Source of the DNA: Corallococcus caeni
GTDB taxonomy: Bacteria > Myxococcota > Myxococcia > Myxococcales > Myxococcaceae
NCBI RefSeq assembly: GCF_036245885.1
Contig: NZ_BTTX01000008.1
DNA length: 64,000 bases
Direction: 5' to 3' (one strand)
Below are positions 10,209 through 25,056 of this stretch, in pieces. The stretch's first letter is position 1, and the number at the start of each line of letters is the position of its first letter. The notes beneath the pieces are model-generated. The model worked only from the letters and a program-made list of their open reading frames with translations, did not search any database and was not told where the DNA came from. The translations under genes and the position numbers were made by a program.

Positions 10209-11021
10209 CTACTTCACGCCCGTGGGCTGCGTGATGGACTCCGACCGGATGGTGTACTGGCCGGCGATGGCGTTCGTGTCGATGCCCGTGAAGTGACGGT
10301 ACGGGTACGCGCCATCCGCGATGACCTCGATGAACTCCACCGAGTCACCCGTGATGGACTTGCCGTTGAGGTCCACGGTGAAGGTGTTCTTCTCCGCGTC
10401 CAGGCGCCACACGCACGCGCCCACGTTCGTCTCCGCGGAGCCGGTGGACAGCCCGTCGATGTCGAAGTCGTTCAGGAAGAAGTGGTGCATCTCCGCCCAG
10501 CGGAGGAAGTCCCTGAAGTTGTGGAAGACGATCATCATCCCGGCCGGCTGCTGGGTGGAGCCCTGGAGCACGCCGCCCCGGTAGATGTTCATCCGGTACG
10601 CGGAGCCGCCCGGCGAGCCCGTGAACGTGGGCAGCATGTTGACGGAGTTCGCCTCACGGCCCGGGGTGACCCTCAGCGTGCTGACGACCTGATCCCCATC
10701 GCGCGCGGCCAGCTGGTAGCCGCCCTGCGCGCCCAGGCTCATCGCCACGCGCTGCTCCCACTTCACGGCCTGCGCGAAGCTGCTGGAGACGCCGTCCTTC
10801 TGCGTCAGCAGCCCCGACACCGCCAGCCCGTCCGCGACGGAGTCGACCTTCGCCTGGCCCAGCGCACACGTCGTGATGCCGTCGAACTTCTTCACACACT
10901 GGGACGCCGCGGACTCCTGCGCGCTCAGCGAACCGGCGGCCTGGCTGTCGTCGCCGCCCGCGCAACCCGTCATGCTCAACAGCAGGGATGCCAGCAGGGA
11001 ACCCGTCATCTTCAGGTGCAT
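10209..11021 (-). CDS. Putative lipoprotein, function unknown
   Basis: N-terminal signal peptide with lipobox LLSMTGC. Globular, protein-like composition. Confidence 0.55.
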   Translation of the reverse strand: MHLKMTGSLLASLLLSMTGCAGGDDSQAAGSLSAQESAASQCVKKFDGITTCALGQAKVDSVADGLAVSGLLTQKDGVSSSFAQAVKWEQRVAMSLGAQGGYQLAARDGDQVVSTLRVTPGREANSVNMLPTFTGSPGGSAYRMNIYRGGVLQGSTQQPAGMMIVFHNFRDFLRWAEMHHFFLNDFDIDGLSTGSAETNVGACVWRLDAEKNTFTVDLNGKSITGDSVEFIEVIADGAYPYRHFTGIDTNAIAGQYTIRSESITQPTGVK

Positions 11022-11139
11022 GCACTACCTCTTGGTGTGGGGGTGGACTGCCCGCGGCCCCACTGCACCCCGCGCGCCAACACCTGAAGTCCGTCTGTTT
11101 TCACTCTTGCAATTCATTGCATGAGAAAACAAGAGTAGC

Positions 11140-11158
11140 GTTTCATGTTACATGAAAC
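11140..11158. promoter_or_regulatory. Perfect 19-bp palindrome GTTTCATGT-T-ACATGAAAC in an AT-rich island (candidate operator)
   Basis: Seen directly. Lies in the divergent intergenic region between the lipoprotein gene (start 11021, minus) and the M28 peptidase gene (start 11343, plus). Local GC drops sharply around 11100-11170. Confidence 0.4.
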
Positions 11159-11342
11159 ATGCGCCGTGTGACGGTCCCGGTCTCACGCGGAGCGGCAGGG
11201 CGTCTCACGCGCGGGCGTGCTCGTGAAACCTGGATTCAGGGAATGAGCCGCGCGCGGGCGGAACTTTGCCGTGGCGCACAACTCCTGACCGGGGCGGTCG
11301 GATAATCTGGGGAGCGCGGTTCCTCCCCCGGACTCCCCCACC

Positions 11343-12749
11343 ATGGCCTCGAAGATCAACGACAGCTCGCGTCCCCTCACCTCCGTCTCGCGGCTGTCGT
11401 CGCAGGACGCCCGGAGCGCGGAGGCGAAGACGCGCAACCGCCCCATCGCGTGGAAGGACGGCTTCGAGTCCTCCGGCGCGCGCCCCGGCTCCAAGCTGCC
11501 GCAGCTGCCGGCGCCGCCGCCGGTGCTGTCGCTGCCGCCGCCCGCCACCACGACGCCGGTGCCGCCGGAGGCCCCCACCGAGCCGCCCGTGTCCGACGAC
11601 TCGGATCCGATGAAGCACATCGAGTACCTGGCGTCGGACGCGCTGCAGGGGCGTGACAGCCCCTCCGCGGGCCTGGACGCGGCTTCCGCCTACGTGCAGG
11701 CGCACGCGGAGAAGTACGGGCTCGTGGGGCCGAACTCCAACAACCCGGAGAACCCCTTCCAGCAGAAGTTCAACGTCTACTCCTGGCTGGGCGCGGACAA
11801 GGCCGGCGAGGCGGCGGGCGCGGCCCATGCCGGACATGCCGAGCACAAGCAGTTCGGCCACGAGACGTTCCAGGAGGGCTTCTACCTGGACGAGAAGATG
11901 CCCAAGGACACGCTGAAGCTGCTCAACCAGCAGTACGAGCAGACGATGAAGGCGGCGGGCCAGAGCGCCGTCCCGGCGCGCTCCGGCAAGCAGCGCGGCG
12001 TGGAGGAACTCAAGCAGGTGGCCACCGCCACGGGCCAGGCCGTGAACACGATGGCCATGCTGCCCGGCACCGGCCCGCACAAGGACGAGGTGATTGTCGT
12101 GATGGCACACCTGGACCACGTGGGCGTGGACCGCAAGGGCAACGCCTACAACGGCGCGGACGACAACGCGTCCGGCAGCGCGGTGCTGATGGCGGCGGTG
12201 CCGGAGCTGGCGGAGGCCGCGAAGAACGGCAAGCTGGACCGCTCCGTGCTGTTCGTCTGGACGGGCGCGGAGGAGAAGGGGCTGGTGGGTTCGCAGTACT
12301 TCGTGGACCACCCCATCCCCGGCGTGGAGCTGAAGAACATCGCCGGCGTCATCAACACGGACATGGTGGGCCGCTGGGATGATCAGCGCCTGTCCGTGGT
12401 GGACACCAACACCAAGGGCCAGCCCAACTACTTCCGCGACGTGGTGGACCAGGCGAACCAGCAGCTGGCGGATCCGTTCGACCGCATCAACCGCGACATC
12501 AACGTCTACCGCGACCGCCAGGACGGCGCGTCCTTCGGGCGCAAGGGCGAGGACGTCCTCTTTCTCTTCGAGGGCCTGTCCAACCCCGAGGGCGGCGGCG
12601 ACCTCATCCCCGAGTACCACCGGCAGGATGACGACATCGAGAAGATCATCGAGGACAACGGCGGCAACAAGCCCCGCCGCGTGAAGGACCTGCTGCTCAA
12701 CGTCATCAACATCGCGGCGAACCGCACGACGGAGCCGCAGCCGAAGTAG
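11343..12749 (+). CDS. M28-family zinc metallopeptidase (aminopeptidase)
   Basis: Zn-ligand motifs HLDHVG and GADDNASG, and TDMVG. The N-terminal ~110 aa are low-complexity and Pro-rich. Confidence 0.85.
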   Translation: MASKINDSSRPLTSVSRLSSQDARSAEAKTRNRPIAWKDGFESSGARPGSKLPQLPAPPPVLSLPPPATTTPVPPEAPTEPPVSDDSDPMKHIEYLASDALQGRDSPSAGLDAASAYVQAHAEKYGLVGPNSNNPENPFQQKFNVYSWLGADKAGEAAGAAHAGHAEHKQFGHETFQEGFYLDEKMPKDTLKLLNQQYEQTMKAAGQSAVPARSGKQRGVEELKQVATATGQAVNTMAMLPGTGPHKDEVIVVMAHLDHVGVDRKGNAYNGADDNASGSAVLMAAVPELAEAAKNGKLDRSVLFVWTGAEEKGLVGSQYFVDHPIPGVELKNIAGVINTDMVGRWDDQRLSVVDTNTKGQPNYFRDVVDQANQQLADPFDRINRDINVYRDRQDGASFGRKGEDVLFLFEGLSNPEGGGDLIPEYHRQDDDIEKIIEDNGGNKPRRVKDLLLNVINIAANRTTEPQPK

Positions 12750-12760
12750 CGCGGCGCACT

Positions 12761-12785
12761 CGGCCGGAAGCCCTGCTTCCGGCCG
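12761..12785. terminator. Bidirectional hairpin between convergent genes (CGGCCGGAAG-CCCTG-CTTCCGGCCG)
   Basis: 10-bp perfect stem with a 5-nt loop, 12 bp after the M28 stop and about 25 bp after the desaturase stop. Confidence 0.5.
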
Positions 12786-12810
12786 AAGCGTTCCCGGGAA
12801 CGCCGGACCG

Positions 12811-13695
12811 CTAGGCGGCCAGCTTCTCCCCGCCGTCGGCCACGGGCCCGCCGGCGAGCGTTTCGACCTCGTGCTCGCTCAGCACGAGCTTCTCCTCGGA
12901 GCCGCGCCAGACGAACGGGATGCCCGGCTGACGGTAGAGGTTCGCGGGGATGTCCCGCGCCAGCTGCGCGTGCAGCTCCGGCAGCTTCGACCAGTGCAGC
13001 CCGTGCCGCGTGTGGTGCGCGGTGTGGTAGCCCAGGTTGCCCGTCATCAGGTTGTAGCCCCTGTGGAGGATGTTGTACGAGGCCTCCGAGTGGTTGGCGG
13101 TGTCCAGGCCCACGTGGTGGAAGTAGGTGGCCCAGACCGTCACGTAGAGCGACGCCGCCATGGGCAAGAGGAACACGAACAGCGCGTTGTAGGGGTTCAC
13201 CCAGAACAGGCCCGCCAGCAGCACCAGCTGGAGCGCGGCCATCCACACGAACACGCGCAGCGCCTTGGGGTGCTGCTTCCTGCCCACCTGGAACGCGCGC
13301 GGGTACGCCGTCAGCGCCGTGCTCAGCGAGTACTCCAGCTCCGCCATCGTCGAGCCGTCGTCCCGCTTCCAGCGCGACTCGTCCTGCGTCTGGTCCAGGT
13401 AGTTCTTGTGGTGGCCCAGCACGTGGTGGAGGAACCACGCCTGCGACGTCACGCCCGTCTGGAAGCCGAAGACGATCTCCAACAGGCGGTTGGGCAGCGC
13501 GTGCTTGAAGAAGGACAGGTGCTGGTGGTGGTGGTTCCACGAGCAGATCCACCCCTTGGGGATGATGCCCAGCCCGAACCACAGCACCGGCACCCACCAG
13601 CTTCGCGCCGTGAGGAACACCGTCATGTCGAGCGCGAACAGACTCAGGAACATCAGGACCGGGATGCGATCTTCGGGGTGCCGGAACAGGGTCAT
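12811..13695 (-). CDS. Membrane fatty-acid desaturase (di-iron, three His-box)
   Basis: His boxes HHHQH, HHVLGHH and HTAHHTRH plus TM segments. The start is taken at the ATG at 13695 (MTLFRHPEDRIP), which has GGAAGG upstream. The ORF is open to 13794. Confidence 0.85.
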   Translation of the reverse strand: MTLFRHPEDRIPVLMFLSLFALDMTVFLTARSWWVPVLWFGLGIIPKGWICSWNHHHQHLSFFKHALPNRLLEIVFGFQTGVTSQAWFLHHVLGHHKNYLDQTQDESRWKRDDGSTMAELEYSLSTALTAYPRAFQVGRKQHPKALRVFVWMAALQLVLLAGLFWVNPYNALFVFLLPMAASLYVTVWATYFHHVGLDTANHSEASYNILHRGYNLMTGNLGYHTAHHTRHGLHWSKLPELHAQLARDIPANLYRQPGIPFVWRGSEEKLVLSEHEVETLAGGPVADGGEKLAA

Positions 13696-13918
13696 GCGCC
13701 TTCCACGACAAGAGGAATCAGGGGAGAAATGCCGATTTTCGGACTGTAGGACGGCACCCCCCACCCCGAACAGCCCACCCACGCCTGCCTGCACGTTCCA
13801 TACTGACGGTAAACAACGTAGTCTCGTTGAACTTGTCTTTCTTTTATTCCAAGAATCTCAGCACTGCCTTGTGATAAACGCCGACCCAGCCCTTTTGGAC
13901 CTCAACCTGGAGGCGGCA

Positions 13919-14581
13919 ATGCGGAACCAGACCATCGAGGCGGCGCTCGCGAAGAACCCCCACCGTGAGCAGCTCATCAAGCATCGTTTCTTCGAGGTGG
14001 TGGACGAGAAGGCCTTCAGCCACGATCAGGCGGAGATGGTGCTGGGTCAGTGGTGGCACCCCCTGCACTACTTCCCCAACTTCCTGAGCAAGCTCATCGC
14101 CGTCTGTCCGCAGATGGAGATGAAGACGGCGGTGACCCACATCCTGAACCAGGAGGTGGGCGAGGGAGACCCGGCGCGCGCGCACGAGCGCTTCTTCATC
14201 CAGACGATGACGGACGCGGGCTTCACGAAGGCGGGCGTGTCGGAGGCGGACATGACGCCCGCCACGCGCCGGCTCATCGACGGCTACCAGCGCTCCACGG
14301 AGAGCCACCTCACCGGCCTGGGCTTCCTCTACGGCACGGAGGTGGCGGACCTCACCATGGTGGCCAAGCTGGGCAAGCTGGTGCGCCGCACCACGGGCCT
14401 CAAGTCCCTGCCCTGGGTGGACATCCACGTGAAGCAGGAGCCGGACCACGTGGAGACGGCCGGCCACACGGTGGGGCTCCAGTACACCGACGAGGAGCTG
14501 GCCACCATCACCCGCGGCGCCGAGGAGATGTGGCAGCTGTGGGTGGGGTTCTTCGAGGAGCTGCGCAACCGCGTCGTCTGA
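13919..14581 (+). CDS. Heme-oxygenase-like 'iron-containing redox enzyme' family protein (PqqC/TenA/CADD/UndA-like di-metal oxidase fold)
   Basis: The pattern FFEVVDEKAFSHDQAEMVLGQWWHPLHYFPNFLSKLIAVCP...ILNQEVGEG...AHERFF matches the Haem_oxygenas_2-type family, with E...H metal ligands. The ATG at 13919 has GGAGG at -7. The ORF is open from 13406, overlapping the desaturase gene in another frame. Confidence 0.6.
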   Translation: MRNQTIEAALAKNPHREQLIKHRFFEVVDEKAFSHDQAEMVLGQWWHPLHYFPNFLSKLIAVCPQMEMKTAVTHILNQEVGEGDPARAHERFFIQTMTDAGFTKAGVSEADMTPATRRLIDGYQRSTESHLTGLGFLYGTEVADLTMVAKLGKLVRRTTGLKSLPWVDIHVKQEPDHVETAGHTVGLQYTDEELATITRGAEEMWQLWVGFFEELRNRVV

Positions 14582-14755
14582 GCGGCCCCTTGCGTCAAGC
14601 GCAACCCCCTGGAATCCGTACGTTTTTGCACGGAAGACTGGCGAATCTCTCCAGGTAGGGTAGTCACTCCCCGCGTCACGGGAGCGTCACACCCAAGCGC
14701 CACCGACCTCCCGCGGCGGACCGCGCCTGTCCCTCCAGGCGCCGAGGGAGATCCC

Positions 14756-15382
14756 ATGCTCGAAAAGCTGATGCCGAAGTCGGACGAGTTCTTCGACGAC
14801 TTCGACGCGCAATGCGCGAGGACCGTCGAGGGAGCGAAGCTCCTGCACGAGCTCCTGGCGGACTACCGGGACGTGCCCACGCGCGTCCAGGCGCTCAAGG
14901 ACGTGGAGCACCGGGGCGACGAGGTCACCCACGCGGCCTTCAACCGCCTCCACCAGCAGTTCATCACCCCGTTCGACCGGGCGCAGATCCACACGCTCCT
15001 GTCGCGCATCGACGACGTGCTGGACCTGACCAACGCGGCGGCGGCGCGCCTGCTGTATTACGAGATTGAATCCAGCCGGCCGGACGCCACGGAGCTGGCG
15101 CGACTGCTGGTGCTCTCCACGCAGAAGGTGCAGGAGGTCGTCGCGGCGCTGCGGCTCATCAAGAAGCCGGAGCAGATCCTCGCGGGCTGCAAGGAGATCA
15201 AGCACCTGGAGTCCCAGGCGGATGAGGTCCTGCGCGCGGGCATGGGCCGGCTGTTCAAGAGCGGCGTGGATACCCTGACCATCATCAAGTGGAAGGAGAT
15301 CCTCGACCTCATCGAGACGGCCACCGACAAGTGCCAGGGCGTGGCCAACGTCATCGAAGGCGTCGTGCTGGAGCACTCCTGA
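14756..15382 (+). CDS. DUF47-family protein (PhoU-like accessory protein of PiT phosphate transporters)
   Basis: ~208-aa helical protein. Its stop lies 1 bp before the PiT transporter start, the conserved DUF47-PitA gene pairing. Confidence 0.75.
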   Translation: MLEKLMPKSDEFFDDFDAQCARTVEGAKLLHELLADYRDVPTRVQALKDVEHRGDEVTHAAFNRLHQQFITPFDRAQIHTLLSRIDDVLDLTNAAAARLLYYEIESSRPDATELARLLVLSTQKVQEVVAALRLIKKPEQILAGCKEIKHLESQADEVLRAGMGRLFKSGVDTLTIIKWKEILDLIETATDKCQGVANVIEGVVLEHS

Positions 15383-15383
15383 G

Positions 15384-16409
15384 ATGCTGCTCGCCGCGGT
15401 CGTCCTCATCGTCATCGTCGCGCTCGTCTTCGACTTCATCAACGGCTTCCACGACGCGGCGAACTCCATCGCCACCGTGGTGTCCACGCGCGTGCTGTCG
15501 CCGAACCTGGCGGTGGCGTGGGCCGCGTTCTTCAACTTCGTGGCGGCCTTCGCGGGCGGCGTGCACGTGGCCAACACCATGGGCAAGGGCATCATCAACT
15601 TCGAGATGCTCCGCGCGGCCGGCCCCACCGCGGTGCTGATGGTCATCTTCTCCGCGCTCATCGGTGCCATCGCGTGGAACCTGCTCACGTGGTGGTGGGG
15701 GCTTCCCTCGTCGTCGTCGCACGCGCTGGCCGGTGGGATGATTGGCGCCACGCTGCCGGTGCTGGGATTCCAGGGGCTGGTGGGCAGCGGCATCGCGCGC
15801 ATCGCGGCCTTCATCGTGCTGTCGCCGCTCATCGGCATGACGCTGGGCATCGCGATGATGGTGGCCAGCACCTGGGCGGTGCATCGTCAGACGCCGCTGC
15901 GCGTGGACACCTGGTTCCGCCGGCTGCAGCTGGTGTCGTCCGCCATCTTCTCCTTCAGCCACGGCACCAACGACGCGCAGAAGGTCATGGGCATCATCGC
16001 GGTGGTGCTCTTCGGCACCATCTGGCGCGACCGCCCGTTCCACATCGACTGGTGGATGATCATCTCCTGCCACGCGGCCATCGCCATGGGCACGTTCTTC
16101 GGCGGCTGGCGCATCATCCGCACCATGGGCCACAGCCTCACGAAGCTGGCGCCCATTGGCGGCTTCAGCGCGGAGACGGGCGGCGGCGTCACCATCATCG
16201 CGCTGGCGGAGCTGGGCATCCCCGTCTCCACCACGCACACCATCACCGGCGCCATCGTCGGCGTGGGGTCCACGCGCGGCTGGCGCGCCGTGAAGTGGGG
16301 CACCGCGGGCCGCATCATCTGGGCGTGGGTGTTCACCATCCCCGCCGCCGCGCTGGTGTCCGTCATCGTCTACGGACTCACGCTGGTGGTGGTGCGGCTG
16401 GTGGGCTGA
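15384..16409 (+). CDS. pitA: Inorganic phosphate transporter, PiT family
   Basis: Two PiT signature repeats (GFHDAANSIATVVSTRVL and HGTNDAQKVMGII) in a polytopic membrane protein of 341 aa. Confidence 0.9.
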   Translation: MLLAAVVLIVIVALVFDFINGFHDAANSIATVVSTRVLSPNLAVAWAAFFNFVAAFAGGVHVANTMGKGIINFEMLRAAGPTAVLMVIFSALIGAIAWNLLTWWWGLPSSSSHALAGGMIGATLPVLGFQGLVGSGIARIAAFIVLSPLIGMTLGIAMMVASTWAVHRQTPLRVDTWFRRLQLVSSAIFSFSHGTNDAQKVMGIIAVVLFGTIWRDRPFHIDWWMIISCHAAIAMGTFFGGWRIIRTMGHSLTKLAPIGGFSAETGGGVTIIALAELGIPVSTTHTITGAIVGVGSTRGWRAVKWGTAGRIIWAWVFTIPAAALVSVIVYGLTLVVVRLVG

Positions 16410-16420
16410 GACACGCCCGG

Positions 16421-16442
16421 GCGCGGGGGAGGCCCCCCGCGC
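16421..16442. terminator. GC-rich hairpin (GCGCGGGGG-AGGC-CCCCCGCGC) between convergent pitA and a membrane-protein gene
   Basis: 9-bp stem about 12 bp after the pitA stop. No T-tract. Confidence 0.4.
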
Positions 16443-16454
16443 CACGGCCCTCCC

Positions 16455-18233
16455 CTACCGGACGTTGAGGGCCGACGGCGGCCCGCCCACCGCCGGCGGG
16501 ACGAAGGGCACCACCTTCTTGTTGTGCCACTGGACCAGCTTCAGCGACGGGTCCTCCAGCGGCACGTCGAAGGTGTAGGAGATGCGCGTGGGGAACTGCC
16601 CGTCCATCTCCTCGATCCGCACCGTCAGGCCCTTCATGTCGAACTCCTGCCCCTGGGCCACCGGGTGGCGCGCCGCGCGGTGGATGCGCTCCTCCACGGA
16701 GTCCAGGAAGTGGCCGCCCTTGGGCAGCGACAGCTCCAGGGAGTTGGGCCCGGTGCGCGTCACCTTCTGCTCGTTGAGCGAATAGGACAGCACCCACCAG
16801 GCCTTCGGCAGGGGCATGCCCGTGGACCACCAGCGCACGGAGCCGTAGATGCCGATGATGCCGTTGGGGGCGTTGAGCACCACCAGCCGCTGCTCCGGTA
16901 GCTTCGTCTCGTCCAGGGCCTCCTGGTAGCGCAGCTGCACGCGCCCCATGAGGGCGTCCGCCTGCGCGTAGGCCTCCGTGGTCTGCCACCAGATGTAGGG
17001 CGCGCCCACGACGTGCACCAGCGCCAGCAGCGCGGCGCCGGCCAGCACCGCGCCCGCGCGGAACGTGCGCGCCCGTCCCTGCCACGCGTGGCGCAGCACC
17101 ACGGCCAGGCCCACCGCCATGCCCAGGCTGGGCACGATGAGCGTGCGCGAGCCGGCGAACGCGGAGTTGGCCAGCCACGTGGACACGAACGCGCCCGTCA
17201 GCATCCAGCCCACCGTGCGTCGCTCCGCGGCCTCCAGCCGGGGCCACACGCCCCACACGAGCAGCGCGAACAGCGTCAGCCCCACGGCGCCCAGCACCGT
17301 GAACAGGGGCACCATGGACGCGTCGAAGATGAAGTCCGGGGGCGCGTTCAGCGTCAGGCCCGCGATGGCGGCCGGGACGCGGGTGAGCATGGCCTTGAAC
17401 CACTCCACGGGCGTCCCCACGGCGTCCAGGTACATGTCCGAGCCCCCCGCGCCGTAGCCCAGCGCGCGGTACAGCGCGAAGTAGCCCGCCATCAGCACGC
17501 CGAAGGGGATGAGCCCCTTGAGCTTGTCCTTCGCCTGCCCCGGGCCGGAGAAGGCCTCGTAGGCCAGCACGTACGGGCTGAGGATGACCATGGTCTCACC
17601 GCTCAGGAGCGCCAGCGCGAAGGACACCAGCGCGCCCACCAGGGAGCCCGTGCGCTTCTCCTCGCGCCACTTCACGTGGAAGTAGATGCCCAGGACGCCG
17701 AAGAGCAGCGACATCACCACGCTGCGGTAGGACAGCCAGCCCAGCACCGCGGAGTGCGAGCCCCAGATGGCGAAGAGGAACATCGCCACGCCCGCCACCG
17801 CCGTGGGCAGCACGCGCTTGAGCAGCACGCCCGCCAGCACCACTATGCCCACGTACCAGAGCACCGAGTGGACCTGATAGGCCACGGCGACGCGGTTGTA
17901 GAGCAGGTGATCCAGTCCGTAGAACAGGCTGCCCAGGGGCCGGAAGAACGCCACGCGCACGGTGGGCTCCACCCACCACGGGAAGACGCCCACCTGCGCC
18001 AGCCGCAGCGTGTGCTCCGGGATGCCGGTGGCGGTGCGGTACACGTCCAGGGGCGTGTTGCCCAGCGGAGCGGGCGGCGGCACGTGGTCCCAGACGCCCA
18101 GCCAGATGAAGTCATCCGGCATGAAGCCCACGCGCAGCACCAGCGCGCCCAGCACCGCCGCGAACGCGACGGAAATCCAGAAGTAACGTTTAAACGGCCA
18201 ACCCGGGGCGGCTGGCGGGGGAGAAGTATCCAT
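16455..18233 (-). CDS. Polytopic membrane protein with C-terminal soluble domain (possibly GT39/PMT-like glycosyltransferase-like); function unknown
   Basis: About 10 predicted TM helices in the N-terminal 420 aa, followed by a ~170-aa soluble C-terminal domain. Convergent with pitA. Confidence 0.55.
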   Translation of the reverse strand: MDTSPPPAAPGWPFKRYFWISVAFAAVLGALVLRVGFMPDDFIWLGVWDHVPPPAPLGNTPLDVYRTATGIPEHTLRLAQVGVFPWWVEPTVRVAFFRPLGSLFYGLDHLLYNRVAVAYQVHSVLWYVGIVVLAGVLLKRVLPTAVAGVAMFLFAIWGSHSAVLGWLSYRSVVMSLLFGVLGIYFHVKWREEKRTGSLVGALVSFALALLSGETMVILSPYVLAYEAFSGPGQAKDKLKGLIPFGVLMAGYFALYRALGYGAGGSDMYLDAVGTPVEWFKAMLTRVPAAIAGLTLNAPPDFIFDASMVPLFTVLGAVGLTLFALLVWGVWPRLEAAERRTVGWMLTGAFVSTWLANSAFAGSRTLIVPSLGMAVGLAVVLRHAWQGRARTFRAGAVLAGAALLALVHVVGAPYIWWQTTEAYAQADALMGRVQLRYQEALDETKLPEQRLVVLNAPNGIIGIYGSVRWWSTGMPLPKAWWVLSYSLNEQKVTRTGPNSLELSLPKGGHFLDSVEERIHRAARHPVAQGQEFDMKGLTVRIEEMDGQFPTRISYTFDVPLEDPSLKLVQWHNKKVVPFVPPAVGGPPSALNVR

Positions 18234-18453
18234 GTTTCAAATATCTATCAGCACGCCCCCCAAGCGAGATAGGTCCTCCTGGGTCGTCCGCTGCCACCGG
18301 AAACACGCGGAGTGCGGCGCGCGCGACGGAGATCCTTTGCCACTGCCCGGACTCCGGGTGATCCTCCGCTGACGAAGGGGGACGCAGTCCGGCAGGTGCA
18401 TTCACGAACGGGCGCGGCCCGTTTCCTTCCGCGCCGTCGCCGGGCCCGCACGC

Positions 18454-19926
18454 ATGCGCATCGCCATCATCGCCACGTACACCCATCCGACCCGCCTGCG
18501 AATCAAGGAACCCTCCATCATGCAGTCCTCCGTGCCGGAGCTCATCGCGGGCCTGTGCCCGGAGCACGCGCAGGTGGAGATCTTCAACGAGAAGGAGGCG
18601 GACCTGCCGTTGGATCGGCACTGGGACCTGGTCTTCTTCTCGTACCTGCACTCGTACTACGAGCACACGAAGGTCCTCTCCACCCTCTTCCGCCAGCGCG
18701 GCATGACGACGGTGGCGGGCGGCCGGCACGCGGGCCACTTCCCCGACGACGCGGCGAAGTACTTCGACGCGGTCATCACCGGGGAGCCGGAGTCCAACGT
18801 GCCCGCGCTCATCGCGGACTTCGAGAAGGGCGAGCTGAAGCCGCGCTACAGCCTGCCCTCGCACGGCGCCGCAGCCATCCGGCCGTACCGCTACGAGCTC
18901 ATCGACTTCACGCACAACAAGGTGCGCCTGCCCGGCATCGAGGCGTCGCGCGGCTGCCCCTTCACCTGCAACTTCTGCGTGCTCACGGGCCACGAGCGCT
19001 ACCGCTTCCGGCCCATCCCGGAGGTCATCGACGAGATCCAGACGCGCATGCGCTGGAACCCGAACTTCCTGGGGCTGATGGGGGACGCGTTCGTCTTCCT
19101 CGACAACAACCTGGGCGGCTCCCCAAAGTACCTGCGCGCGCTGTGCGAAGCGCTCATCCCCCTGAAGAAGACCTGGGGCTGCGCCCTCACCTTCAACGTG
19201 CTCAAGGACGAGTCGCTGGTGAAGCTGATGGCGAAGGCGGGCTGCCGCTACGTCTACACCGGCCTGGAGTCGCTCAACCCGGACTCCATCAAGGCGATGA
19301 ACAAGGGCCAGAACAAGCTGTCGGAGGTGGACGCCGTCATCCGCCGCGTCTTCTCCGCCGGCATCCTCCTGTCCTTCGGGCTCATCGTCGGCTCGGACGG
19401 CGACACCAACGAGTACCTGCACCGGCTGCCGGAGTACCTGGCGGACCTGAAGTACTTCTCCGTCACGTTCCTGGGCATCGTGTGCCCCTACCCGGAGACG
19501 CCCTTCTTCCGCGAGCTCCAGGCGCAAGACAGGCTCCTGCCCGGCACCATCAGCCGCGACTACGACGGCTACACGCTGTGCCACCGGCCCAAGCAGTTGC
19601 ACGCGTCGGAGGTGGTGGAGCACTTCCAGCGGCTGTGCCGCACGCTGGGGAGCCTGCCCAACATCGCGCGGCACTACGCGTCCAAGCTGATGCTGAGCGA
19701 CCTGCCCCGCTACAAGCAGACCATCCTCTTCTCCGGCCCGGAGATCGTCAGCATCCGCAACCCGCTGAAGAACAAGGAGCGCCGCTACATCGCGGGCCTG
19801 GACGCCATCGAGTCCTGGGACGCGGAGCAGATGGCCACGCTGGGCCTCACGCCGCAGGTCTTGACTGGACCCGGGACGGCAGCCGCACGTCCCACGCCAG
19901 TCCCAGGGCTCGCAGCAGGCGGATGA
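18454..19926 (+). CDS. B12-binding-domain radical SAM protein
   Basis: N-terminal cobalamin-binding-like domain (DLVFFS...VAGGRHAGHFPDD) followed by the radical-SAM cluster motif CPFTCNFC. 490 aa. Confidence 0.85.
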   Translation: MRIAIIATYTHPTRLRIKEPSIMQSSVPELIAGLCPEHAQVEIFNEKEADLPLDRHWDLVFFSYLHSYYEHTKVLSTLFRQRGMTTVAGGRHAGHFPDDAAKYFDAVITGEPESNVPALIADFEKGELKPRYSLPSHGAAAIRPYRYELIDFTHNKVRLPGIEASRGCPFTCNFCVLTGHERYRFRPIPEVIDEIQTRMRWNPNFLGLMGDAFVFLDNNLGGSPKYLRALCEALIPLKKTWGCALTFNVLKDESLVKLMAKAGCRYVYTGLESLNPDSIKAMNKGQNKLSEVDAVIRRVFSAGILLSFGLIVGSDGDTNEYLHRLPEYLADLKYFSVTFLGIVCPYPETPFFRELQAQDRLLPGTISRDYDGYTLCHRPKQLHASEVVEHFQRLCRTLGSLPNIARHYASKLMLSDLPRYKQTILFSGPEIVSIRNPLKNKERRYIAGLDAIESWDAEQMATLGLTPQVLTGPGTAAARPTPVPGLAAGG

Positions 19927-20677
19927 AGAGCCAGCCCGGGTCCCACTGCCACCACACCCAGCCGTGCCGCGCGGACGCGGGGAAGGCGTGGTGGTTGTTG
20001 TGCCAGCCCTCGCCCAGCGCCAGCACGCTCACCCACCACACGTTGCGGCTGTGGTCGCGCGTGTCGTGGGCGCGGTGGCCGAACGCCGCGTGGCACACGG
20101 AGTTCACCGCGTAGGTGCTCTGCATCCAGCACACCACGGGCAGGAAGAAGTACGCGGGCACCGCGCGCCAGCCGAACGTCAGCCCCACGAAGAGCACCCC
20201 CAGCACCTGCGGCGCGATGCGGTAGCGCAGCAGCCAGTGGTAGTACCCGTCGTTCGCCAGGTCGCGGCACCAGGTGCGCCAGCCGTCCTCTTCTGTGGAG
20301 GCCTCGTTGAGGATCCACCCCATGTGCGCGTACCAGAAGCCCCGCGCCGGCGAGTGCACGTCCCCTTCCGCGTCCGCCTTCGCGTGGTGCAGCCGGTGGT
20401 TGGCGGCCCACAGCAGCGGGCTGCCCTGCGCGGTGAGCATGGCCACCGTCACCAGCGCGTACTCCACCCAGCGGGGGCACGCGAAGGCGCGGTGGCACAG
20501 GAGGCGGTGCAACCCCACCGTCGTGCCCAGGCCAATGGACACGTACACGGCCAGCGCCACCGGCAGCGCGTACGGCGGCCAGGGCAGGAAGAACGCCAGC
20601 GCGGCCAGCGCGTGCACCACGACCATGTAACCGACGATGACGGGACTGAGCTGGAAGCGGAGCGGTGCGGTGGTCAT
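19847..20677 (-). CDS. Acyl-CoA (stearoyl-CoA Δ9-type) fatty-acid desaturase
   Basis: His boxes HRLLCH, HRLHH and HNNHH in a polytopic membrane protein. The start is taken at the ATG at 20677 (MTTAPLRFQL). The ORF is open to a GTG at 20758. Confidence 0.8.
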   Translation of the reverse strand: MTTAPLRFQLSPVIVGYMVVVHALAALAFFLPWPPYALPVALAVYVSIGLGTTVGLHRLLCHRAFACPRWVEYALVTVAMLTAQGSPLLWAANHRLHHAKADAEGDVHSPARGFWYAHMGWILNEASTEEDGWRTWCRDLANDGYYHWLLRYRIAPQVLGVLFVGLTFGWRAVPAYFFLPVVCWMQSTYAVNSVCHAAFGHRAHDTRDHSRNVWWVSVLALGEGWHNNHHAFPASARHGWVWWQWDPGWLFIRLLRALGLAWDVRLPSRVQSRPAA

Positions 20678-20754
20678 GGCCCGGTGCGGAGTCGAGGAAG
20701 GAGCACGCAGTCTAGGGGCCCCACCTGACGGGACAAGGAATGCGTCCCCCGGTG

Positions 20755-23700
20755 TCACATCACGCGGACGTCACGGGCGCCTGACGCCTGGGGCACAGGC
20801 AGCGCCTCCGCGGGCGGGAGCCGGGTCGCGGCCTGGAAGCGGTCCATGCGGCGCAGCTCCGCGCGGGCCTCCACCTCCGTGAAGATTTCACGCGCGCGGG
20901 CGAGGAAGGCCTCGCGCCGGTGCGGCAGGGCCACCGCCGCGTCGAAGTAGGCCACGCCCGTCTCCCACCGGTTGGGGCTCTTCTCCAGGACGGCGATGGC
21001 CTCCAGGAACACCGGCTCCGCGGCCCTGGGGCCCTTGCGCAGGGCCAGCGAGCGCGCCGTCACGCGCAGCGCCGGGCCCTTCAGGTACGGGTAGAGCCGG
21101 GCGATGAAGCGCGCCTTGATGCAGGACAGCCGCACGATTCGCAGCAGCTTCCTGCGCGGCACCACCGTGGCGCCCTCCTCCAGCGCGAAGAGGGCCGCCT
21201 CCGCCGCGTCCACCAGCCCCACCTGGAGGAAGGGCACCAGCACCTGGTAGCTCCAGATGCTCTGGAAGCAGCGCACCGCGACGAGCGCCGCCTCCTCCAC
21301 CTGGTGCTCGCGCACCGTGACGTTGGCCAGGTGGTTGAGGCTGGCGCACTGGTTGGCCAGGTCCGCAACCTCCACGCTGATGCGCAGGCCCTGCTCCAGC
21401 TCCGCGCACAGCTCGCCCACGTCGCCTTCGCCCAGCAGGTAGCGGCACATGGGCGCCCACGAGTGCGCCCAGCCCTGGTGCATCAGCGCGTTGAGCTCCA
21501 CGCCAATGGTCTTCATCTGCTCGTAGAGCGCCTCCGCCGTGCGGAAGCGCGAGTGGAGGAACTCGCCCGTGGCCTGCATCATCAGGGACGTCTGGCGCTC
21601 CCAGCGCTCGCCCACCTGGCGCAGCGTGGAGACGGCCTCCTCCTGGAACTCCCGCGCGCGCTGCAGCTCGTTGGCGAAGAAGGCCTGGATGCCCAGGCGG
21701 CTGAGCGCGAGCCCCTCCGCCACCGGGTCCTTGGAGCGCCGCGCGTACTCCAGCGCCTTCTCGCAGTGGTAGCGCGCGCGCTTGAGCAGCCCCGCGCCGA
21801 ACAGCAGCGTGCCGTAGTAGCCGCGCGCCAGGCTCATGGCGTAGTCGCTGCGCGAGCGCTCCGCCATGTTCGTGGACACCAGCGTCGCCCACGTGAGCTT
21901 CATGATGTCCGCGAAGTAGTAGATGCGGATGAGCGAGTTGAGCGTGGACAGCTGCTGGAGGTAGTTGCCCTGCCGGGACGCCGGCAGCGGCCGCAGGATG
22001 AACGGCAGGAGCGAGGCCAGCCCCCGCAGCAGCAGGTTGGCCAGCGTGCGCAGGCCCAGCGCGGGCAGGCTCCCCGGCAGGCTGCGGCCCCGGAGCACCA
22101 GGGACTTCTCCAGGTGCTGCGTGGCGAGCGCGGACTCGCCCTTCTCCTGGTGCGCGCGGCCCAGGCCCAGGTGCAGCTCCGCCTGGCGCTGGGGGTCCTC
22201 TTCGTCCACCAGGCACTGCTCGAACATCAGGATGGCGTTGGCGTAGTGGCCCGCCTGGAGCAGCGTCTCCGCCAGCTCCTGCATCACCCGGCGCATCTTG
22301 ACGAGCATCGCATCCGGGTCCACGGGGGCGACGGTGCCCAAAAGCTCCACGCCGCGGTTGTAGTGGTAGAGCGCGTCGTCGTTCGCGTACTGCGCCCGCG
22401 CGCTGCGGGCCGCCATCAGCGTGTACTCCAGGCCCTTGTCCTCCACGTTGCCCGCGAGGAAGTGGAACGCGAGCAGACCCGCGGAGGCCGCGAGGTTGTC
22501 GTTCGCGCGGACCTCCAGGTAGCGCGCGAGCCGGCGGTGCAGGTCCTCGCGCGCCGACACCAGGAGCGTGTTGTAGGCCACGTCCCGGATGACGATGTGC
22601 TTGAAGAGGCAGGTGTACGGCTCCTCCTGCTCCAGCAGGATGAGGCCCAGGCGCTGGAGCGTGTCCATGGCCTCGCGCAGGCGCTGCGCGCCCAGGGTGG
22701 GCACCAGCGCCGCCACCGCGTCCAGCGTGAAGATGCGCCCGATGACGGACGCCACCTTCACCACCAGCTTCTCCGTCTCGCTGAGCAGGTCGATGCGCGA
22801 CAGCACCACGTCCTGGATGGAGTCCGGCAGCAGCAGGTCCTGCAGGCCGCGCTTGAGCTCCATCCGCGTGGAGCCGGGCTCCGCCAGGCCCAGGTAGCCC
22901 TGCTCCGCCAGGCCCTCCACGATGGATTCGATGAAGAACGGGTTGCCCTGCACCTTCGCGAGCAGCCGGTCCTCCAACGCGACGTCCGGCGGCGACAGGC
23001 GCAGGTGCACGCGCAACAGCGCCCGCGTGTCCTCGTCGTCCAGGCTCACCAGGTCCACGGGGAGGAACTCGGGCAGCTCGCGCAGGCCCTTGACCTGGTC
23101 GCCCGGGCGCATCGTCGCCAGCACCATGATGCGGTGCGAACCCACGCGCACCGCGAGGTGCTGGAGCAGGTCCAACGAGATGTAGTCCGCCCAGTGCAGG
23201 TCCTCGAAGAAGAGCAGCAGCGGCTGCGAGCGGCTGAGCTTCTCCAGCAACAGGAAGACGATCTGGAACACCTTCTGCTGCTTGCGCCGCGCGTCCATCC
23301 CCGCCGTGGCGGACGTCTCCTCCAGCGACATGCCGAGGATGCCCGCCACCACCGGGATCCACTCCGGCCCCACGTCCTCCAGCCCCTCCAGGCCCTGGCG
23401 CAGGCGCGTGAGCTGCGCCTCGGTGTCGTCCGAGTCGTGCAGCCCGAAGGCCTGGAGCAGCACCTCCTTCCAGGGGAAGAAGGGGGTGAAGGCCTCGTAG
23501 GAGTAGCAGACGCCGTACAGCGCCCGCGCGCCGCCCTCCTCCGCGTCCTCCAGCACGCGCGCGCCCAGCCGCGACTTGCCGATGCCCGCCTCGCCGGACA
23601 CCACGCACACGCGGCCCTGGCCGGCGAACGAGGCGTTGAGCGCTTCGTGCAGCACGTTGAGCTCGCGGCTGCGGCCGATGATGTCGCCCCGGCCCTTGAT

Positions 23701-25056
23701 GAAGAGGCCGCGGCGCGTCTCCCCCAGGAGCCGGTACACCGGCACCGGGCGCGAGACGCCCTTGAGCTTCGCGTCCTCCACGAACTCGGTGGCGAAGCCG
23801 CCCTGCTGCGAGCGCGCCTGGGTGTTGGCGCACAGGTGCACGCCGTCCTGGCGTCCGCCGTGCGTCATCAGGCGCGCGGCCATGTTCACGACCTCGCCCA
23901 GCGCCGAGTAGCCCTTGCGCGTGGGCGAGCCCATGTCACCGCAGTACGCGTGGCCGGTGGCGATGCCCATCTGCAGCTCCCCCAGGAAGGGGAACTGCTC
24001 GCGCGCCTTGAGCAGCTTGCAGGCCAGCCGGCACGCCAGGACCTCCTTGTTCTGCTGCGCGGTGGGCGCGCCGAACAGGACGTAGAGCACGTTGCCCTTG
24101 TCCGTGAAGTCCGTCATCAGCAGCACGCCGCCGTGGTGGGCGCTCTCGCGCTGGACGAACTCGTAGTAGGCGTTGAGGTCCCGGGTGAAGGCGTCCGGAT
24201 CCGCGTCCGACGACGCGTGGGTGAAGCGCACGAAGAAGCAGGTGACGTCGCGGAAGTCGCCCGCGAACTCCTGGTGCGCGGTGGTGATCTTCGTGAAGAG
24301 CACCGGGTGCAAGAGCAGCGCGCACCGGCCCACCAGCTCCGCCCCGCCCGTGGGCGCGGGCAGCGGGCGCTTCACGGCCTCCACCGGCGCGTCGAGCGCC
24401 AGCCGGTGGTTGCCACCCTCGCGCGGCTCGCCCCTGCGCGCGGCCTCCGGCAGCGCGGCCCAGGCGCGGGGGCTCAGGACGACCTCCGACACCGTGGCCT
24501 GCTTCTCCGCGCCCACCGCCTGCGCCAGCGGCTCGCCCACGAGCGCCGGGTGCATCCACAGGCCGGTGGCGCCCATCACGATGCGGGTCGCCTCCCCGAA
24601 GCCGATGCCGATGCGCGACGACACGCCGAAGCGCTGGCCCATCAGCTCCAGCCGGGCGAAGCGCGCCAGCCTGCGCTGCACGCTCAGCGCGCACACCGCC
24701 GCGCGCTGCACGACGTCGCCGTCCGCCTCGCCGGGCGCGGCCTCGAAGCACGCGAGGATGGAGTCACCGGCGAACTGGTAGATGTCCCCACCGTGGTCCC
24801 GGACCACGTCGATCATCTCCGTGTAGTAGTTCGTCAGCAGGCGCTGGAGCGCGTCGATGCCGCGCGGGCCCGCGCCGCTCAGCCCCACCACGATGGGCGT
24901 GAAGCCCGCGATGTCGAGGAGCAGGATGGCGCCCCGCACCCCTTCCGCGCGGGGCAGCGCGTCCGCCTCCTGGCTCCCGAGCCGCGCGAGGATGGCCGCC
25001 GGCATGTAGGGCGCCAGCGTCGCGACGACGGGATCGATGGGCTGCGTGGAGGGCAT
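20755..25056 (-). CDS. Large signalling protein with two tandem class-III adenylate/guanylate cyclase domains, a P-loop NTPase (AAA_16/STAND-like) domain and a TPR region
   Basis: First cyclase domain: ILLLDIAGFT...GDIYQFAGDSILACF...RIGIGFGEA. Second cyclase domain: CFFVRFTHAS...LYVLFGAP...GIATGHAYCGDMGS. Walker A: VSGEAGIGKS. The C-terminal ~700 aa are helical and TPR-like. 1433 aa. Confidence 0.85.
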   Translation of the reverse strand: MPSTQPIDPVVATLAPYMPAAILARLGSQEADALPRAEGVRGAILLLDIAGFTPIVVGLSGAGPRGIDALQRLLTNYYTEMIDVVRDHGGDIYQFAGDSILACFEAAPGEADGDVVQRAAVCALSVQRRLARFARLELMGQRFGVSSRIGIGFGEATRIVMGATGLWMHPALVGEPLAQAVGAEKQATVSEVVLSPRAWAALPEAARRGEPREGGNHRLALDAPVEAVKRPLPAPTGGAELVGRCALLLHPVLFTKITTAHQEFAGDFRDVTCFFVRFTHASSDADPDAFTRDLNAYYEFVQRESAHHGGVLLMTDFTDKGNVLYVLFGAPTAQQNKEVLACRLACKLLKAREQFPFLGELQMGIATGHAYCGDMGSPTRKGYSALGEVVNMAARLMTHGGRQDGVHLCANTQARSQQGGFATEFVEDAKLKGVSRPVPVYRLLGETRRGLFIKGRGDIIGRSRELNVLHEALNASFAGQGRVCVVSGEAGIGKSRLGARVLEDAEEGGARALYGVCYSYEAFTPFFPWKEVLLQAFGLHDSDDTEAQLTRLRQGLEGLEDVGPEWIPVVAGILGMSLEETSATAGMDARRKQQKVFQIVFLLLEKLSRSQPLLLFFEDLHWADYISLDLLQHLAVRVGSHRIMVLATMRPGDQVKGLRELPEFLPVDLVSLDDEDTRALLRVHLRLSPPDVALEDRLLAKVQGNPFFIESIVEGLAEQGYLGLAEPGSTRMELKRGLQDLLLPDSIQDVVLSRIDLLSETEKLVVKVASVIGRIFTLDAVAALVPTLGAQRLREAMDTLQRLGLILLEQEEPYTCLFKHIVIRDVAYNTLLVSAREDLHRRLARYLEVRANDNLAASAGLLAFHFLAGNVEDKGLEYTLMAARSARAQYANDDALYHYNRGVELLGTVAPVDPDAMLVKMRRVMQELAETLLQAGHYANAILMFEQCLVDEEDPQRQAELHLGLGRAHQEKGESALATQHLEKSLVLRGRSLPGSLPALGLRTLANLLLRGLASLLPFILRPLPASRQGNYLQQLSTLNSLIRIYYFADIMKLTWATLVSTNMAERSRSDYAMSLARGYYGTLLFGAGLLKRARYHCEKALEYARRSKDPVAEGLALSRLGIQAFFANELQRAREFQEEAVSTLRQVGERWERQTSLMMQATGEFLHSRFRTAEALYEQMKTIGVELNALMHQGWAHSWAPMCRYLLGEGDVGELCAELEQGLRISVEVADLANQCASLNHLANVTVREHQVEEAALVAVRCFQSIWSYQVLVPFLQVGLVDAAEAALFALEEGATVVPRRKLLRIVRLSCIKARFIARLYPYLKGPALRVTARSLALRKGPRAAEPVFLEAIAVLEKSPNRWETGVAYFDAAVALPHRREAFLARAREIFTEVEARAELRRMDRFQAATRLPPAEALPVPQASGARDVRVM

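Follow-up and report, generated by a model that had tools for sequence, protein, structure and literature searches.

Within a 64,000-nucleotide stretch of the Corallococcus caeni genome (contig NZ_BTTX01000008.1 of assembly GCF_036245885.1; below, the window), a gene for a membrane fatty-acid-desaturase-like di-iron enzyme (positions 12811..13695, minus strand, 294 amino acids) and a gene for a heme-oxygenase-like di-metal oxidase (HDO; 13919..14581, plus strand, 220 amino acids) lie back to back across a low-GC spacer. A first-pass annotation of this DNA had taken the two for a small olefin-tailoring module composed of an UndB-type and an UndA-type enzyme under a shared promoter. We found that both genes are real and, in our judgement, they probably do not form a functional pair. 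The HDO would be a member of a clade associated with nonribosomal peptide synthetases (NRPSs) that has become detached from its cluster, and its position beside the desaturase gene would be accidental. The earlier interpretation is partly supported: its assignment of the two proteins to their families, and the coordinates that it gave, proved right, while the proposed partnership did not stand up to comparison across genomes.

Co-occurrence of the two genes in other genomes had been put forward as a way to refute the partnership. We searched 80 species-representative genome loci encoding a relative of the HDO with the proteins of the window. The desaturase gene flanks the HDO gene in Corallococcus only, at all eight of the eight loci having an upstream flank, and synteny in this genus covers the whole block from a 270-aa open reading frame (ORF) through a second desaturase gene (window 10209..20758), so that the pairing in Corallococcus reflects shared descent only. 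Citreicoccus, whose HDO is 85% identical, lacks the pairing; it keeps the order HDO-PhoU_div-PHO4, and the genes upstream of its HDO gene encode a flavin monooxygenase-like protein and an amidohydrolase. The pairing is also missing in Pyxidicoccus (HDO 81% identical), where a DUF5916 gene lies upstream and MFS_3 and NRPS genes lie downstream. In the remaining 69 loci, no desaturase-like ORF was found within 10 kb of the HDO gene, using phmmer with four diverse desaturase queries together with a His-box screen. Looking from the side of the desaturase, we found no HDO gene next to its orthologues at the loci of Myxococcus xanthus, Pyxidicoccus parkwayensis, Cystobacter, Archangium, a Pseudomonadota metagenome-assembled genome (MAG) and a metagenome contig. 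As each of the two genes occurs widely without the other, they differ in both phyletic pattern and conserved context. Moreover, genes of the PF00487 desaturase family are dense in this genome (two within 8 kb), and a chance adjacency of a desaturase gene and the HDO gene is therefore unremarkable.

The sole locus outside Corallococcus with any desaturase gene near the HDO gene belongs to Pyxidicoccus caerfyrddinensis. There, a different PF00487 desaturase (332 aa), a free-standing acyl carrier protein (ACP) and an acyl-CoA dehydrogenase are encoded 5-6 kb upstream of the HDO gene (locus L004, 1518..5238); the window desaturase matches this 332-aa protein in phmmer with an E-value of 3.6e-9.

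Outside Corallococcus and Citreicoccus, the recurrent neighbour of the HDO gene is an NRPS gene. Flanking ORFs were clustered and then searched by tblastn with NRPS adenylation (A) and condensation (C) domains, with Pfam annotation of representatives. With Corallococcus and Citreicoccus excluded, A or C domains were found within 10 kb of the HDO gene in 65 of 70 loci and within 5 kb in 64 of them, the distance between the HDO gene and the NRPS gene often being 100-500 nt. Among the five loci without an NRPS, four are on short contigs (L020, L037, L066, L070), and one (L035) is flanked by a full 10 kb on either side. The linked loci span Acidobacteriota, Eisenbacteria, Dyella, Paraburkholderia and Kofleriaceae, and their gene arrangements fall into at least four distinct architectures across several phyla. 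In Thermoanaerobaculia the NRPS gene is divergent and an alpha/beta-hydrolase gene lies downstream of the HDO gene (at the one locus annotated with Pfam, a DIP2-like AMP-binding domain opens the NRPS); in Dyella, Rudaea, Paraburkholderia, Kofleriaceae, Eisenbacteria and Polarisedimenticolia the HDO gene is directly followed by an NRPS opening with a condensation domain; in Terriglobia the locus contains MFS_3, a Zn-dependent dehydrogenase and a CmlA-like beta-hydroxylase; and in Pyrinomonadaceae the NRPS gene lies upstream of the HDO gene on the same strand. From linkage over several phyla and architectures we infer an association far above chance.

One of these loci, in Dyella tabacisoli (L077, 4554..17727), is a compact operon encoding a DegT-type aminotransferase, a capsid-like ORF, a sulfotransferase, a short-chain dehydrogenase/reductase, a methyltransferase, the HDO and an NRPS of the order C-A-T-C-A-T-TE (T, thiolation domain; TE, thioesterase domain). 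The capsid-like ORF, which matches Phage_capsid (HK97-like) with an E-value of 4.5e-10, is possibly spurious; it and the aminotransferase ORF overlap.

The placement of the 13919..14581 product in the heme-oxygenase-like family, already made in the first-pass annotation, is well supported by profile searches and by a predicted structure. The protein matches PF14518 (Haem_oxygenas_2) over residues 41-208 with 97.4 bits against a cut-off of 28.9. Six predicted ligands, E79, H89, E141, H170, E174 and H177, are invariant in an alignment of 25 sequences at 50-96% identity, which bears out the earlier expectation of conserved E-x(n)-H di-metal ligands; a set of three histidines and three carboxylates defines heme-oxygenase-like di-metal oxidases (PMC13108848). 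In the same alignment the N-terminal motif GQWWHPLHYFPNFL is invariant in the clade. An AlphaFold2 model built on these 25 sequences is all-helical (predicted local distance difference test score 91.3, predicted template-modelling score 0.89), and Foldseek matched it with probability 1.00 to CADD (template-modelling score, TM, 0.78-0.81) and BesC (0.78), and also to UndA (0.72), PolF and HrmI. The identity in these matches is 11-20% throughout and none stands out. While a phmmer search of PDB sequences with the single HDO sequence returned noise only, the family profile retrieved BesC (E 3.4e-9), NePabS (E 1.8e-7) and CADD (E 2.5e-4).

The clade itself is small: out of 1.84 billion cluster representatives, 41 were matched at E<=1e-30 and 149 at E<=1e-3. 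The HDO of C. carmarthensis is 99% identical to that of the window. Across 8 Corallococcus species the mean identity of the HDO is 96.6%, which equals that of PHO4, in comparison to 90.9% for the desaturase, 89.8% for an M28 peptidase and 76-90% for the other neighbours. Judged by these identities, the HDO is strongly conserved and is not decaying. The GC content at its third codon positions (GC3) is 0.964, similar to that of neighbouring genes, and with this native-like value we rejected a recent horizontal acquisition.

The reactions of only about a dozen HDOs are known (PMC13108848), and these enzymes appear to be specialised in pathways that use amino-acid substrates (PMC13185094). Among solved structures the best profile match of our HDO is BesC, the 4-chloro-allylglycine synthase of Streptomyces cattleya (PDB 7TWA; 39.7 bits), which is of similar size, aligns over about 220 residues in structure and acts on an amino acid in the service of a natural-product pathway. 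When the two proteins are aligned, their ligand positions E...H, E and H-x3-E-x2-H coincide. On the other hand, their identity is only about 19-20%, and GQWWHPLHYFPNFL is absent from BesC. No NRPS gene is known to lie next to that of BesC. PolF and HrmI (PDB 9PRR, 9J3V, 9N1X), two other amino-acid-modifying HDOs, have TM scores of 0.62-0.78 to the model. They use free amino acids (Ile, Lys) which feed peptide-type natural products, and this fits the genomic context of the clade; however, they are larger than our HDO and their sequence similarity to it is marginal (E 0.23-0.45).

Because the clade is linked to NRPSs and characterised HDOs act on amino acids, oxidative tailoring for an NRPS product is the role that we propose for it. 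Such an enzyme, belonging to a small uncharacterised clade whose conserved genomic partner is an NRPS, would most likely modify an amino acid or a peptidyl intermediate by means of an O2-activating di-iron (or Fe/Mn) site. The desaturase would be a membrane di-iron lipid oxidase that stands alone and is passed on vertically in myxobacteria, with neighbours that differ by genus, and its adjacency to the HDO gene would be a genus-specific accident of synteny.

The spacer between the two genes is consistent with this separation. This 223-nt sequence (13696..13918) had been described as an AT-rich promoter island. Its GC content is indeed the lowest among the 12 intergenic regions longer than 80 nt, but at 55.2% it is AT-rich only relative to the 71.1% of the whole window. 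As for a promoter shared by both genes, a scan of 12600..14900 for sigma-70 consensus or promoter-like sites found none, and the spacer consists of two halves that behave differently. The HDO-proximal block (about 13795..13918, plus strand), which includes a GGAGG ribosome-binding site at 13909..13913, is near-invariant in nine Corallococcus sequences and is partly kept upstream of the HDO gene in Pyxidicoccus and Citreicoccus, where the desaturase gene is not a neighbour. In two Corallococcus species (L015, L017), an insertion of about 120 nt splits the desaturase-proximal half from the HDO-proximal one. As the HDO-proximal half is kept without the desaturase gene and the two halves can be separated by an insertion, the low-GC island is more readily seen as a pair of separable promoter regions than as a single element used by both genes. 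The terminator scan of 12600..14900 gave one terminator-like site, which is at chance level, and none after the HDO gene. There was no Rfam match in 12500..15000 at E<=1, and a search for repeats inside the spacer found none.

If the HDO belongs to NRPS clusters, it needs to be asked what became of its partner in Corallococcus. In the complete genome of Corallococcus sp. EGB (CP079946.1), the HDO gene is located at 5.632 Mb in the same context as in the window, while an MFS_3 gene immediately followed by a gene for a 3431-aa three-module NRPS is found at 6.965 Mb, that is, 1.33 Mb away (L092 6750..18296; the NRPS has the order C-A-T x3-TE and MFS_3 is an exporter). Along its full length, the EGB MFS_3 shows 69% identity to the MFS_3 encoded between the HDO and NRPS genes of Pyxidicoccus; no MFS_3 accompanies the paralogous NRPS found on the same contig of Pyxidicoccus. 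These facts are most simply explained by the splitting of an HDO-MFS_3-NRPS cluster in the Corallococcus/Citreicoccus lineage, by which the HDO gene of Corallococcus would have been separated from the rest of its cluster. Since the HDO gene is strongly conserved and keeps a conserved upstream region of its own, we speculate that the enzyme may continue to work for that NRPS in trans. A-domain codes of the EGB NRPS, obtained by Stachelhaus-type extraction with a GrsA reference, are DVQFNAHAA, DALFMGVTY and DVQFMAHAV, that is, Pro-like, Ile/Val-like and Pro-like. The recurrent Pro-like code DVQFIAQLA was considered as a mark of HDO-linked NRPSs and rejected, as it is also present in Archangium and Vitiosangium NRPSs without an HDO. 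We also observed a 9-mer, CTGCACGTT, that is common to the region upstream of the HDO gene (window 13789..13797) and the region upstream of the MFS_3-NRPS genes (L092 6665..6673). With a chance expectation of about 0.17 for such a match, it could be a site for a common regulator, although a weak candidate for one.

Several observations weigh against our interpretation. Annotation of the window at about 7-38 kb showed no NRPS gene, and the entire 64 kb does not contain an ORF of NRPS size; a link to an NRPS in Corallococcus, if there is one, would therefore need to operate in trans. The same type of three-module NRPS (Pro-like, Ile-like, Pro-like) is present in Archangium and Vitiosangium, where no HDO of this clade was found in the survey of HDO relatives. 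The HDO is therefore not a strict requirement of the myxobacterial NRPS, and, this NRPS type being present without it, the partnership in trans in Corallococcus can be put forward only hypothetically. Many of the 70 loci come from related Acidobacteriota MAGs, so their counts are not independent. Finally, the desaturase and ACP genes at 5-6 kb from the HDO gene in Pyxidicoccus leave a small probability that the HDO has a loose lipid link in myxobacteria.

Some of the same facts could be explained if the Corallococcus HDO were a stand-alone, NRPS-independent enzyme, making a free small metabolite or cofactor either in a self-sacrificing manner, like CADD or PabS, or from a free amino acid. We regard this as unlikely, although it does have its merits: the strong conservation of the gene, its own promoter region, the lack of a nearby NRPS in the window and the existence of related NRPSs in genera without the HDO would all be accommodated. 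Moreover, CADD is the best Foldseek match. The self-sacrificing p-aminobenzoate synthases CADD and NePabS (TIGR04305; PDB 1RCW, 8VA9, 9PJ4) share with our HDO the seven-helix fold, a similar length and a 3His/3carboxylate site, and the TIGR04305 alignment is full-length. However, it reaches only 46.7 bits against a cut-off of 200. In these synthases the sacrificial tyrosine (Tyr27 in CADD, Tyr25 in NePabS) and the lysine that donates the amine (Lys152 and Lys159, respectively) are the residues in question (PMC11965152). The tyrosine, which in the NePabS structure 9pj4 is part of an HPFY motif, aligns with an invariant phenylalanine, F25, in the HDO family, and the column of the lysine donor is occupied by Ala, Gly or Ile. 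On these grounds we rejected a CADD-type p-aminobenzoate synthase. In addition, CADD and NePabS are linked to folate while our clade is linked to NRPSs, and this overwhelming NRPS context of the family argues for a role within a pathway.

Turning to the other gene, the description of 12811..13695 as a three-His-box membrane desaturase was confirmed. The protein matches PF00487 (FA_desaturase) with 102.2 bits at a cut-off of 29.7, and the histidines of its boxes, HHHQH (residue 55), HHVLGHH (90) and HTAHH (224), are invariant across 22 homologues. Its start is the ATG at 13695, as homologues open with MTLFRHPEDR; for the same reason a longer ORF with a GTG start reaching 13794 was rejected. Where four transmembrane helices would be expected for this superfamily, hydrophobic segments were located at residues 10-31 and 143-192 in a Kyte-Doolittle scan; the latter could span two helices, and a second N-terminal helix, expected at about residues 33-53, remained under the threshold. 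The GC3 of the gene is 0.98. Orthologues of 72-80% identity are present in Myxococcus, Cystobacter, Archangium, Pyxidicoccus and Hyalangium. No PDB sequence was matched by the desaturase family profile, a phmmer search of the same sequences with the single protein gave noise only, NCBIfam yielded no assignment, and we found nothing relevant in the literature on a characterised Myxococcus orthologue. In function, we place the protein no more closely than as a membrane enzyme of the fatty acid desaturase type.

In M. xanthus and P. parkwayensis the desaturase orthologue is part of an operon together with genes for a lipoxygenase, a lipoxygenase with a PLAT domain and a cytochrome P450, and from this context in Myxococcus the enzyme may have a part in the metabolism of unsaturated lipids or oxylipins. 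The orthologue (72-74% identity) closes the cluster in both species (M. xanthus L006 247..6846; P. parkwayensis L008 379..6867), the P450 stop and the desaturase start overlapping by 4 nt, and the cluster may be a bacterial oxylipin operon. In Cystobacter, Archangium, the Pseudomonadota MAG and the metagenome contig, the desaturase gene is surrounded by unrelated genes.

With both proteins described, the proposal that they form a divergent lipid- or olefin-tailoring module like UndB and UndA, acting on fatty acids from a shared promoter, can be weighed; we consider it highly improbable. What speaks for it is that in all Corallococcus species examined the two genes are divergent neighbours with a low-GC spacer between them, that both enzyme classes are able to act on fatty acids (PMC13108848; PMC12746148), that UndA has the fold of the HDO, and that Pyxidicoccus has another desaturase gene and an ACP gene in the vicinity. 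UndB, like our desaturase, is an integral-membrane di-iron enzyme of PF00487 with three His boxes (PMC12746148). However, the likeness does not extend much further. A comparison by hhalign of the 22-sequence desaturase family profile with the Pseudomonas mendocina UndB, whose sequence was machine-read from the supplement of PMC12746148 and contains some optical-character-recognition noise, gave a probability of 0.07% (E 0.67). The boxes themselves also differ (NHHHQH, HHVLGHH and HTAHH in the desaturase; HELEHDLIH, HLHLNHH and HAIHH in UndB), and a further difference is the lipoxygenase-lipoxygenase-P450-desaturase operon to which the orthologues in Myxococcus and Pyxidicoccus belong. On sequence grounds, the desaturase is not UndB-like.

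The resemblance of the HDO to UndA, the Pseudomonas 1-undecene synthase (PDB 4WWJ, 6P5Q), is similarly general. UndA has an O2-activating di-iron site within the same fold, but the identity in the structural alignment is about 11-12%, and a search of PDB sequences with the HDO family profile did not list UndA at E<=10. The ligands of the first helix pair are spaced E-x9-H in the HDO, whereas UndA has a short E-x2-H spacing. Moreover, unlike UndA, the HDO family has no fatty-acid context. Taken together with the absence of the pair outside one genus, the wide occurrence of each gene without the other, the upstream block that travels with the HDO gene alone and the density of PF00487 genes, these differences speak against an olefin module and are compatible with our interpretation of two unrelated neighbours.

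Downstream of the HDO gene lie PhoU_div (DUF47, PF01865) and the PHO4 phosphate transporter gene (PF01384), together at 14756..16409 on the plus strand. That the HDO gene forms one operon with these phosphate-uptake genes is hardly credible: the shared strand, the gap of 174 nt, the lack of a terminator-like site after the HDO gene and the gene order kept in Corallococcus and Citreicoccus would allow it, but among the 80 loci this order is confined to those two genera, being absent in Pyxidicoccus and all 69 other loci, and there is no chemical rationale linking the HDO with phosphate uptake. PhoU_div and PHO4 are an ordinary self-contained pair.

Further along the window, positions 16455..20758 form a conserved Corallococcus block which might by itself constitute a lipid-modifying set. 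It encodes a 592-aa PMT_2-like membrane protein on the minus strand, a B12-binding radical SAM (S-adenosylmethionine) enzyme (18454..19926, plus strand), whose best NCBIfam matches (BchE, HpnJ and 'lipid biosynthesis B12 rSAM') are all far under the cut-off, and the second PF00487 desaturase (19847..20758, minus strand), the 3' end of which overlaps that of the radical SAM gene by 80 nt. Immediately downstream of this desaturase gene, a 1433-aa protein with an adenylate/guanylate cyclase domain, AAA_16 and tetratricopeptide repeats is encoded on the minus strand (20755..25056).

An olefin module, if true, would have suggested a new route to alkenes, which the comparative data do not support. 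This case also calls for caution, since divergent adjacency within a single genus is weak functional evidence in genomes dense in desaturase genes. For the HDO clade, we tentatively suggest that in lipopeptide-type NRPS clusters of Acidobacteriota, Eisenbacteria, Xanthomonadales, Burkholderiales and Myxococcota it may catalyse an undescribed HDO reaction on an amino acid or a carrier-bound intermediate, and that the detached Corallococcus copy may still feed the MFS_3-linked Pro-like / Ile-like / Pro-like NRPS encoded 1.3 Mb away. Well defined by the invariant GQWWHPLHYFPNFL, its six ligands and a near-universal NRPS linkage, the clade is a clean target for functional work in natural-product enzymology.

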